Of a DNA stretch of 64,000 nucleotides, positions 48,801 to 51,800 are shown piece after piece. This DNA comes from an uncultured Verrucomicrobiae bacterium. Its GTDB lineage: Bacteria; Verrucomicrobiota; Verrucomicrobiia; Limisphaerales; Palsa-1400. How positions within the stretch are numbered: position 1 is the first letter of the stretch; the number at the start of each line of letters is the position of its first letter. Position numbers: made by a program. The stretch spans positions 261,424 through 325,423 of the forward strand of contig CAVPOM010000014.1 of NCBI GenBank assembly GCA_963707025.1, given 5' to 3'.

Positions 48801-51800
48801 CGGAAGTCACCGCCCCACTGAAAACCAAACTGCGGGCACTCGGGCGGACCATTTTCCTTTCCGCCTACCGGAAAGGGGCGAAGCGTACAGGCCAGCGCGA
48901 GCGGAATTGGAGTCCATGAGGGCTTGCCCTCTGGCGCGGGTCTGGGCCGGCGTGAGGCCCGGCGCCGGGGTTTGGGGACGGCGCAAGTCCCCAACGACGG
49001 AAAAATGGCTGAACTGCTGCCAGTCCAGCCGTATGGGTGTTTCTGACGGTCAATCCTCCCCCAACATCATCAGGGTGATGGCGGGCTGCGGGTCGTCAAT
49101 GTCGAGCGGGCCGCAAACGGCGGTCAACCTGACAAGTCGAGGGGCGCGGTTGTCGTTGCGGACGTACAACGCAACCGGCAAGCGGTCGCAACCGGGGCGG
49201 CTGCGGAGGATGGCGAACCGTGTCATTGTCATTAGGTCCCAGAGGCGACCGGCTTCGTCCTGGCCGGCCACGCCTGGCGGCACGGTCACGTAAGCATCAT
49301 AAACGGCGCGGGTGAGAAAAACCGGAAAACGGATGCCGGCTTCCTGGGCGGTCTTGGAAACCTCAATCTGCACGCCGTCGGCAACGGCCTGTGAGCGGGT
49401 GTAAGAAAAGATGACTTCGCCAAAGGGCGAATTCTCGTTGTTCGTGTTCATGGTTTTTAGCGGTTAAGGATGGGGACTTCGGACTGTGGAGAGATACGAA
49501 CCAAACCGGGTTTGGGTTGAATGCGGACACGCACGCCCAAAAGCGTGGTGAATTCGCGGGGCTGCTTGGTGACGGCGACAACGGCGGAACAATCGCTGAC
49601 ACGGACAACGCGACACGGCTTGCCGTCCAGGCGGATGACATCGCCAGCATGGAGACGGAATAGATAAACGGTTTTCATTTGGAATTTTGAGAAACAAACA
49701 AACGCGCTTGCGCGGATTCTGCGGCACGGTGGGCGCGGTCGGCTTCGGCTCGCTCTCGGGCAAGACGATCTCCGTCCAAACCGGTTTGGAGTGCGAGATT
49801 GAAGGTGGCCGGGGCAAACAAAAACTCATGCTGGGGGAGTGGCAAGCGCCGTCTGTTTCTTTTCATGGGGTGGTGTCCAGTCAAGCGGGTTTCGTGTCTG
49901 CCGGGAAGAAGGTCTGATATTTGTCGCGGGGGTCACGGTGGCTGCCGGTGACAAACTGGCCGCAAGGGTGCTGCCAAGCCTGGCGTTTCCGATTCCAATG
50001 GAAACCAAACTGAGACAGGGCGGCGGTAATCTCTGGCGGCTGGCGGTCGTCAAACTGAATCCAAACCCATTTGCCAACTACCTGCGCCAATTCCCAAAAG
50101 CGCGGGGTCTCGTGATAAAGCATGTCCAAGAGTTTTTCCGTGGAAAGTCCACGGTTCTTAAATCGGAGTTTGAAATCAATCCGATGCGGTTGTTCTGCAT
50201 CCGCAGTTTTTGAAACCGACGATGGCCGGACATTCGCCGGTGCTGACGCTTCAATTTTTAGATGTGTTGTTTTCATAGCTTTTTTTTTGAACCGCTGTCC
50301 GTCACCCTGCCGTTTGCTGCTCGCTTCACCTGATTGGGAGACAGCGATGCCGTGCGCGAAGTGCATTCAACCCCCAGCGAAAGCTAAAACCGTGACAGTG
50401 GCGAAAGGGCAAAGGGGAGACGCTGGCGCGGTTTTTGATCTCGCTCCTCGACTCGGCTCGGTGTCGGACAAGCGAGCAGCAAATGGCGGGGTGATGGCGT
50501 GCGAAAAAAAAGGCGCAGAAAACAACCTGAATGAGGCGGGCAGACGGGTAATTGCCTCACACTATCGCGGAGCGGCGGGGTTGGCGGGGTTCATGCCGGG
50601 GCCGGGGGCGGGCATGAAACATGACAGACGCGCGTAATCAGGATTCCCCGGCTCCGTTGTGAATTTCCAAAGCCGTGAGCGAAACGGAGCGTTTGGGCTG
50701 GCCGCCCGCGTAGGGGAAAGGGTCGCGGAGCGGACGGACCAAAAAGCGGAGTGGAGCGGCGGATTTGGAAATTCATCAAGGGAGCTTCAACGGGGGAGCC
50801 AAGTCTTGCCGGGTTTGGCGGCGTAGTCTCAACGAGGGGAAGCCAAAGCCGGCAAGTCTTGGCGACAGGGCGGGGCAATGGGGCGAGTAGGGGGCACGCG
50901 GGGGCCGCGATTTCTTGTCGCTCAACCTGAAAGGCCCGGAGTGGAGCGGTCGGCCATTTGCGTAGGCCCAGACGCGCAGTGCGAGCGGAGCGAGACCGAG
51001 CATCGTAGCCGGAGCAAATGGGCGAAGGAGCGGAACGGAGAGGCTTTCAGGCTGAGGGACAAGCTCGAATCGGGGGCGGCCTGAGTGCGTCGGTTTTGCG
51101 GAGCGTAGCCGGAGGGTGGCGGGGGAGCGGAGCGAAAGCGAAAGCCGCCGCTCTCAGGACGCTGGAAAAATGGTGATTCACCGTTGAAGAGACTTCAATG
51201 CATCAAAGGAGCGACGAACTTCCGGCAGCGGGTCGGATGCGCACAAGCTTCGCCACAACAGTATAGGGGATGGCTCCGAAGCACCGGGATAGGATTTGCC
51301 ATACCAGAGCGCAAGCGATCCCGCCAGTGTGCCAACAAGCATGCGCAAATCCGGACGTTTGGTCTCCGGATAGTCGCCACTTTGTTCATCTTCAATGGGG
51401 ATCATTAGCGCATGGTGCCAAGTAACCAAACTGGCAGAAATCAGGGTGGCTTGTTGTAGATTGATTTTCTCTGGTTTCTCGACGATTAGATAAGACAAAT
51501 GATAAAGGCAATAAATGGCCCCGGCCTTACGACGAAAAACTACCCGTTCAATAAGAGTTTGGAGGAGAAGTGGCGGGGGAACGGGAACCCGCCCGGCGTC
51601 AGAAAGATGAATCCAGTGACGTGTAGCCTTAGCGGCAGCGGCAACCGCGTCTTCAATGTCTGAATTCAAGTCCTGTAAGATTGTGTCACCTATGTTTGGG
51701 GCATCACCTGGACGTTGTATCAAAATGTAGGGGAGCGCGACTGTCGGAAACGCACGAACATCGCGCATTTCCCGAAGCCAGTTGGTTAATTGTTGCCAGC

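Follow-up and report, generated by a model that had tools for sequence, protein, structure and literature searches.

A modular hairpin array on the template strand of the DUF6573 operon, a probable single-strand DNA start-up cassette of Verrucomicrobia mobile elements

Mobile elements of several kinds in an uncultured Verrucomicrobiae bacterium (GenBank assembly GCA_963707025.1) carry a conserved, strongly folded non-coding stretch upstream of a small operon that ends in a DUF6573 gene. This locus raises the questions of whether the stretch acts as DNA or as RNA, on which of its strands, and whether as a promoter, as an origin or in some other way. The window, i.e., the whole stretch of DNA that was analysed, is 64,000 nucleotides long and ends at the end of contig C14. 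The following features bear on the questions:

47063-48715, + strand: large serine recombinase, the likely left end of the element
48716-49049, no strand assigned: second structured non-coding stretch, between the recombinase and DUF6573, with relatives in RNA-library contigs
49050-49451, - strand: DUF6573 gene (PF20213, E 4.5e-17)
49457-49678, - strand: o3, a 73-aa ORF with no Pfam family
49675-49884, - strand: o2, a conserved 69-aa ORF with no Pfam family
49881-50276, - strand: o1, the first operon gene, 131 aa, with conserved GFHWN..R..WQHPCG
about 50255-50530, + strand: module A, a branched hairpin of ~100 bp (50266-50526), candidate promoter or translation gate
50531-50640, + strand: module B0, a small hairpin, with a CGC-GNA-GCG mini-hairpin at 50566-50574 (N variable among copies) and a mismatched duplex
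about 50646-50795, + strand: hairpin B1, a long imperfect stem whose internal loops are symmetric and purine-purine (GAA/GGA, GGA/GGA), with a G-rich loop; candidate site of priming
50798-50863, + strand: hairpin B2, a 22-bp stem whose apex is a purine-rich internal loop with a 3-bp mini-stem cap
50900-51172, + strand: module C, two G.A-rich hairpins, weakly like a hairpin downstream of the ColE1 origin
59665-61179, - strand: coupling protein, TrwB/TraD type
62340-63512, - strand: MOBF relaxase, TrwC domain only, with the contig end 488 nt upstream

The serine recombinase is followed by the antisense operon (o1, o2, o3, DUF6573), by the hairpin array and then by SIR2, MmeI-type, NYN, coupling-protein and TrwC genes. 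No att repeats longer than 14 nt were found at the seven loci examined, and the limits given for the elements therefore rest on gene content. The array is a non-coding modular stretch of 920 nt (50255-51172) in the order A, B0, B1/B2, C, the module borders being set by break points shared by the matches in relatives; the size of ~250 nt given in a preliminary description of this DNA is thereby corrected, and the modules were also found separately. The 5' arm of module A includes the complement of the o1 start codon (50274-50276) and that of the A-rich leader of o1. At the end of the mismatched duplex of B0 stands TGACAG, which recurs in A and in the arrays of the capsid elements described below. 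The apex motif of B2 is that of A2, a second form of the start-codon hairpin present in other elements; the loop of its mini-stem has two bases in most copies and three in the window copy.

The two hairpins B1 and B2 were seen where the preliminary description had placed them. Folded as DNA, the + strand of the double hairpin reached -71.3 kcal/mol (z -8.07) and the - strand z -5.86; folded as RNA, z was -5.94 for the + strand and -5.19 for the - strand. None of 200 shuffles was as good in any of the four cases. For the whole array, 50255-51172, the fold z values were -8.99 (+) and -5.13 (-), based on 20 shuffles.

The compensatory stem changes claimed previously were also observed: in 23 aligned B1/B2 copies (25 copies have both hairpins, two with long insertions being omitted), 16 of 60 pairs showed two-sided changes, corresponding to about 20 events. 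None of 500 shuffles was as high, and slid controls were far lower. Core lengths of the aligned copies ranged from 206 to 218 nt, so that the indels break reading frames, as had been reported. The concern that the changes mark few events or a single split is justified for B2, in which most of the 11 swaps, on five branches of the module tree, fall on the split between two subtypes. It applies less to B1, with at least nine Watson-Crick swaps on seven branches, and not to the related hairpin A2, in which 19 of 32 pairs changed on both sides. The subtypes of B1 and B2 were found shuffled between copies.

No Rfam family (radC, STAXI, c4 or others) was detected at gathering score at three related loci, and the four weak matches, at E up to 5, between 47000 and 64000 were all far under the cut-off. 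The earlier statement that there is no match at E 0.1 has one exception, a match at E 0.012 to a mammalian lncRNA model, which was taken as chance, its score being 17.6 bits against a cut-off of 55.

Profile searches of the same genome identified eight B1 copies at seven loci, one of them partial, and a lone B2-like match, close to the nine matches originally counted. Among 30 genomes of the family, 22 match some part of a 951-nt region and, by reading of the listed matches, 18 overlap the double hairpin, in agreement with the number given before. The other copies of this genome lie in two inovirus elements (C16, with Zot, and C7, whose genes are the same as far as the contig reaches), in a rolling-circle Rep element (C9) and in an element with MobC and an MbeA-like relaxase (C1, E 2e-32 to ColE1 MbeA), where B1 occurs as a tandem duplicate; a transposase-ATPase element (C12) has module A alone. 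An operon gene was found in antisense within 2.6 kb of 21 of the 29 B1 copies that have room for the operon (eight are without it), of 18 of 30 C copies and of 19 of 20 A copies, so that the operon does follow in most loci, as described.

BLAST searches with the array against 72,556 plasmids and 50,697 phages gave no significant match, with one chance match of 25-30 nt in each set. B1/B2 gave one 27-nt match in 300 other genomes of the phylum, a weak result since only two candidates per genome were scored. Viral contigs searched by pattern yielded no relative of o1; two loop patterns had one match each in viral contigs.

The operon had been described as a DUF6573/RadC operon and as an early anti-defence module. 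No RadC gene is present in the operon of the window; among 80 DUF6573 loci of relatives, mostly labelled Verrucomicrobiota, RadC joins the operon in 21 and ArdC in 3. Known anti-restriction or anti-CRISPR proteins were not found in the operon of the window. The alignment-based model of o1 (pLDDT 76; the single-sequence model was too poor for use) had no Foldseek match at E 0.001 and a best VIA Z of 3.3, which shows neither a new fold nor a lack of relatives. An Atlas search assigned o1 to unnamed clusters and DUF6573 only to DUF6573, and DUF6573 was mentioned in none of the papers searched. With o1 lacking a family or fold match and DUF6573 being uncharacterised, the anti-defence function is hypothetical.

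The identity of the folding strand, left open by the preliminary description, was addressed through stem mismatches, with the arms aligned by Watson-Crick scores only, so that both strands were treated alike. Counted on the + strand as distinct column-type events in related copies, which are not independent trials, G.A mismatches outnumbered C.T (180 vs 61), G.G outnumbered C.C (105 vs 35) and G.T outnumbered A.C (135 vs 102). The bias was pronounced in B1 and C but slight in A and B2, the A type of the window being nearly strand-symmetric; the 44 distinct copies of A2 showed 58 G.T against 23 A.C and 51 G.A against 30 C.T. Upstream of DUF6573, the peak of G.A motifs (chosen from the window) was higher on the template than on the coding strand in 53 of 64 loci, themselves related, and lower in 8. 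The excess over their complements of G.A, G.G and G.T in the array stems, and of G.T and G.A in A2, indicates that the template strand of the operon folds, and not its mRNA: the folding strand is the + strand.

The orientation of this strand was compared with that of the replication and transfer genes, the counts coming from about five related families that are not independent cases. The folding strand is the sense strand of the inovirus genes in both inoviruses and in one inovirus-like Rep module (G030), and of rolling-circle Rep in 5/5 elements; the strand displaced in rolling-circle replication is the sense strand of Rep. Thus, as in sso and ssi sites, imperfect non-coding hairpins lie on the displaced or viral strand. 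The folding strand is antisense to the MbeA-like (ColE1-type, MOBP5) relaxase in 7/7 elements, and from the position of nic we take the nicked strand of ColE1 to be the antisense strand of MbeA. For MobA (MOBQ) it is the sense strand in 6/6, and a hairpin followed by the nic-like motif TATAACC(G/T)CGCC was present on it in all five readable cases. The motif resembles the MOBQ oriT consensus given in PMC3832669; a literature search for MOBQ with a nic motif was without result. MOBP5 and MOBQ elements would thus have the array on the leading region of their transferred strand (T-strand).

The MOBF elements gave a mixed picture. The relaxase of the window is antisense to the folding strand, which fits the leading-region rule that relaxases enter last (PMC11541004, in excerpt), but three other MOBF elements, and a neighbour at C7 that is probably separate, have their relaxase in sense, opposite to that of the window. 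A search for nic in 27 upstream regions produced a hairpin-plus-motif candidate in these three array-bearing elements, on the sense strand, and none that was secure for the relaxase of the window. We infer that the folding strand is the one that becomes single in four element families, the case of the window's relaxase being presumptive. Structure, folding strand and orientation all agree with the original view of a structured single-strand element common to inovirus, rolling-circle Rep and mobilisable elements.

These findings make it probable that the array serves as a start-up cassette of single-strand DNA, with B1/B2, B0 and C as origin and A in the expression of the operon. The array would fold only when its own strand is single, i.e., once it has been transferred by conjugation, displaced in rolling-circle replication or brought in by a filamentous phage. 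B1/B2 with B0 and C would then constitute an sso or ssi at which a host enzyme, either RNA polymerase or PriA together with primase, would prime the second strand; the host encodes PriA. Hairpin A, located at the first gene, is a candidate promoter or gate through which the operon would be expressed from the single strand. In duplex DNA, with no recognisable promoter, the start codon would be hidden in any read-through mRNA, the mRNA copy of A pairing over the leader and first codons (z -5.3); a transcript begun inside the 5' arm of A should be translatable, and a read-through transcript not. Second-strand synthesis would remove the hairpins and expression would therefore be brief.

Alternatively, B1/B2 with B0 could itself be a single-strand promoter of the Frpo type, with priming as a secondary function. 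It would drive the operon or, in copies that have lost the operon, the integrase on the far side of the att junction. The position of B1 on the template strand and upstream of the operon in most copies would suit such a role, as would TGACA on the 3' arm of B0 in close copies, with TA..GT 17 nt further along the template, and once circularised, operon-less MOBP5 copies would have the array pointing at the integrase. Frpo combines the two functions (PMC11541004 and PMC9849209, in excerpt) and, like the array, is a stable template-strand hairpin upstream of leading genes, but its stem holds canonical -35 and -10 boxes (PMC9849209, in excerpt), none of which was found by eye on the hairpin arms in the alignments, despite the TGnTATAAT-like promoters of relaxase genes in this lineage. 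No sigma-70 site was predicted on either strand between 48700 and 51300, and the -10 candidate of B0 is lost in distant copies.

The distance to the operon also argues against this reading, which we regard as unlikely: B sits 370-590 nt from the start codon, and the fixed distance belongs to A or A2, which enclose the start codon at fixed geometry, the A2 apex being 86-90 nt from it in 38 of 44 copies. To lie far from the start codon, to be duplicable and to be kept without the operon is what would be expected of an origin. Since no Frpo boxes could be found and the operon is missing from 8 of 29 B1 copies, we rank the origin first and take B to be more likely a single-strand origin than an Frpo-type promoter. 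The preliminary proposal of an Frpo-like promoter or origin is thus retained in its second part only, as far as the double hairpin is concerned.

The preliminary description had also left open whether the element works as DNA or as RNA, and the loop motifs bear on this point. Two-base loops are typical of DNA, and the apex of A2 consists of a 3-bp stem that closes two bases. The stem is paired in every one of the 44 copies: TCT/AGA in 29, CCT/AGG in 5, TCC/GGA in 3 and GCT/AGA in 8, with G.A counted as a pair and one class off by one, the sum being 45. The apex common to A2 and B2 showed compensatory changes at its outer and inner pair. Tandem G.A pairs are found in RNA too. The CGC-GNA-GCG hairpin of B0 has G, A or T as its variable base in 24 of 31 copies. 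In capsid-element arrays, 64 cGNAg triloop hairpins were counted on the folding strand, in 20/20 arrays (9.6 expected), and 8 on the other strand; in the other arrays, the numbers were 22, in 14 of 23 (6.3 expected), and 2 for the opposite strand. Four falsely anchored loci were omitted from these counts. As a control, 533 intergenic regions showed no strand bias (0.37 vs 0.31 per kb). The cUUCGg hairpin was absent from all 43 arrays. According to a review by their discoverers (PMC13037366, in excerpt), the stability of GCGNAGC mini-hairpins is far greater in DNA than in RNA, and they occur at the G4/St-1 origins of ssDNA phages, at ssiA of RSF1010 and at N4 promoters. Judged by these motifs, the marks of the array, i.e., G.A/G.G stem pairs, cGNAg triloops, covarying two-base loops and no cUUCGg, are of DNA type.

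The + strand array could nevertheless be a structured RNA, either an antisense RNA of the o1 leader or a long non-coding transcript from an upstream promoter. The RNA folds are significant too, and G.T exceeds A.C, most clearly in A2. In inovirus, Rep and capsid elements most of the coding is on the folding strand, so that its transcription is conceivable. Relatives of the array were present in all four metatranscriptome contig sets examined, whose contigs have no strand information; the shares in the RNA runs, by contigs, were 0.05-0.07. The RNA-library contigs cover the operon as well as the array, at low depth, however, and may be due to DNA carry-over. Further against an RNA are the lack of a bounding promoter or terminator in the searches made, the absence of an Rfam family at gathering score, the dominance of triloops and two-base loops over cUUCGg, and the flip of the strand relative to the main genes in MOBP5 elements, which is predicted by single-stranded DNA and not by RNA. 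We consider an RNA quite unlikely.

It could also be that the hairpins are protective or docking folds of single-stranded DNA, resistant to nuclease or SSB or a site for o1, a PurA-like protein or an HUH enzyme, and not a start of priming or transcription. In REP sequences GTAG precedes a small hairpin, and the apex of the array hairpins often starts with GTAG ahead of a small hairpin. The GTAG is inconstant, however, with TAG at this place in about half of the 44 A2 copies, and a REP-type transposase was seen beside no array. Mini-hairpins are nuclease-resistant and bind SSB poorly (PMC13037366, in excerpt), and PurA-like and SRAP genes lie beside some capsid-element arrays, but the constant spacing between A2 and the start codon points to a role in expression, and we hold a purely protective or docking function to be highly unlikely. 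Very remote is the reading as an EGeRS1-like regulator that acts on the coding strand, where a long mRNA leader would prevent read-through and translation as long as a relieving signal is absent: EGeRS1 of pLS20 has a similar architecture of several hundred bases with many inverted repeats, repeated before establishment operons and promoterless (PMC8708921, in excerpt), and the mRNA copy of A does pair with the start region, but wobble and G.A pairs favour the template strand, the transferred strand of EGeRS1 is the non-template strand whereas the presumed single strand here is the template, and no terminator was found on the coding strand of the array.

The start-up cassette has to account for a further class of carriers. 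The preliminary description named only elements that form single-stranded DNA, a restriction that the data do not support: related arrays are core parts of terminase-portal-capsid elements, with a terminase cluster at 28 and a portal cluster at 20 of the 80 DUF6573 loci. These elements, of ~20 kb, encode integrase, primase, helicase, terminase, portal, scaffold, capsid and adaptor; no tail genes were recognised in them (two matches near E 0.03). The operon and an array of 1.5-2 kb lie between terL and portal, and among 11 viral contigs picked by portal, eight had o1 and a G.A peak between terL and portal, one was unclear and two were without room. The start-codon hairpin pattern was present in 20/20 capsid-element arrays and the TGACAG duplex in 17/20, and the profiles of A, B0, B1, B2 and C found nothing at E 0.001 in these loci, except two weak C matches in L134.

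Packaging by terminase should give double-stranded DNA, which counts against the single-strand model. Either a single-stranded stage exists in these elements or the DNA reading is incomplete. The arrays hint at the former, a stage so far unrecognised, which could be due to one-strand uptake by the competence channel of the host, as for gene transfer agents, or to strand displacement by the elements' own primase and AAA_25 helicase. ComEC was found in 5/5 capsid-element hosts checked, a weak indication since it was also present in 10 of 14 controls. Literature searches for tail-less, capsid-forming, satellite or ssDNA elements in Verrucomicrobia returned nothing. A wider proposal, which we hold to be possible though doubtful, is that Verrucomicrobia own a modular start-up cassette, read without a canonical promoter, on which the ~20-kb tail-less elements depend: their packaged double-stranded DNA would pass a single-stranded stage, in which the array would prime the second strand and fire the antisense operon.

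The array was compared with known systems. The ssoA type of single-strand origin is marked by the CS-6 hexamer, which is absent from the array of the window. The profile of module C matched, weakly (E 0.38), the ColE1 hairpin 1329-1365, in a region that is presumably the location of the pas; the B1 profile had no match. This G.A-rich hairpin downstream of the ColE1 origin was the best match of module C in 28.5 kb of F, ColE1 and phiX174, and may relate C to the primosome assembly sites of phiX174/ColE1 (PMC5778457, in excerpt); searches for primosome hexamers in the literature gave unrelated papers only. The sso of rolling-circle plasmids and sso1 of ICEBs1 (PMC4595007 and PMC5714925, in excerpt) resemble the array in their imperfect hairpins on a strand expected to go single, in their occurrence in integrative elements and in their fixed orientation; PMC4595007 describes an assay for such origins, in which single-stranded DNA is converted to double-stranded DNA in one orientation.

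Frpo/ssi of F and ColIb-P9 (PMC11541004 and PMC9849209, in excerpt) are alike in having a long template-strand hairpin upstream of small leading genes and no duplex promoter, and in being repeated in mobile elements; in contrast, the array has no canonical -35/-10 that could be found, consists of several modules and also occurs in inoviruses, rolling-circle and capsid elements. The only sequence likeness to F, a B0 match at E 0.026, lies inside an annotated F ORF and was dropped as a sign of Frpo kinship, being at chance level. EGeRS1 of pLS20-family plasmids (PMC8708921, in excerpt), compared by description and not by sequence, has 400-750 bp, inverted repeats and several copies directly upstream of establishment operons, with no constitutive promoter; it differs in its strand, as stated above, and comes from a different phylum and other element types. 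The STAXI and radC motifs (PMC2864571, in excerpt; Rfam RF01728 and RF01754) are likewise structured, non-coding and located beside anti-restriction, radC and integrase genes, and single-stranded DNA was weighed for STAXI; unlike the array, they have Rfam models, to which nothing matched here, and STAXI was judged to be RNA by its UUCG loops, which are missing here. By analogy, then, the array would work like an sso/ssi combined with Frpo while not being assignable to either, and in layout it comes closest to EGeRS1, although the two strands are used the other way round.

Enterobacterial and Firmicute elements are known to have single-strand promoters and origins, and the array would represent a family from Verrucomicrobia, for which the papers searched describe no genetic parts. 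Covarying DNA-only motifs, such as two-base loops and GNA triloops, could serve in genome scans to separate ssDNA elements from RNAs. The conserved o1/DUF6573 operon is marked as the likely first-expressed genes, and the fixed place of the array between terminase and portal in the tail-less elements leads to the testable claim that these have a single-stranded stage. If the start-up function is true, one cassette would be exchanged among filamentous phages, rolling-circle elements and three relaxase families.

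Downstream of the DUF6573 gene lies a second hairpin-rich non-coding stretch, in which a coverage peak at window positions 48888-48981 was contributed by relatives in RNA-library contigs. Defence cargo and an IS630-type transposase are also found in the window:

43314-44244: IS630-type transposase, two overlapping ORFs
48716-49049: second hairpin-rich non-coding stretch
51178-59594: defence cargo, made up of a SIR2_2 protein (1299 aa), a restriction-modification enzyme of the MmeI type and an NYN-domain nuclease

The loci L136, L100, L090, L198/L199, L194/L195 and L210-L217 constitute one family of integrated elements of approximately 20 kb each, encoding terminase, portal, scaffold, capsid and adaptor proteins; no tail genes were recognised in these elements. 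Several are present per genome, and terL and the portal gene are separated by the operon and the hairpin array. The array is adjoined in several capsid elements by genes for PurA-like ssDNA/RNA-binding proteins (L080, L087, L089, L100, L195) and by SRAP genes (L087, L090, L213, L214).

An unannotated gene pair (approximately 400 and 330 aa) is common to capsid elements and inoviruses; it was located at L184:9432-11630 and L185:1918-4120, and also in L090 and L195. Two large inovirus-type elements, of 25 to >36 kb, were identified in the own genome (G000); they share cargo, glycosyltransferase and GtrA-like, that separates the phage genes from the array. Other features of this genome include two tRNA arrays, with a further copy of the hairpin element lying ~13 kb away from the one on C2:

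C16:162000-188000: inovirus-type element 1
C7:514500-550863: inovirus-type element 2
C2:106545-112159: tRNA array, 10 genes
C8:72468-81806: tRNA array, 11 genes
C12 (L026:3545-9150): gene group adjoining module A and a shortened operon

The C12 group, where module A occurs alone, encodes a 907-aa protein matching no Pfam core family, a 432-aa protein and an AAA ATPase resembling phage transposition proteins, and is possibly a Mu-like or Tn7-like element.

Within this order, many MOBF relaxase genes are directly preceded by a palindromic motif (upstream of TrwC in L229, L232, L234, L235, L237 and L251), which could be an operator or part of an oriT.
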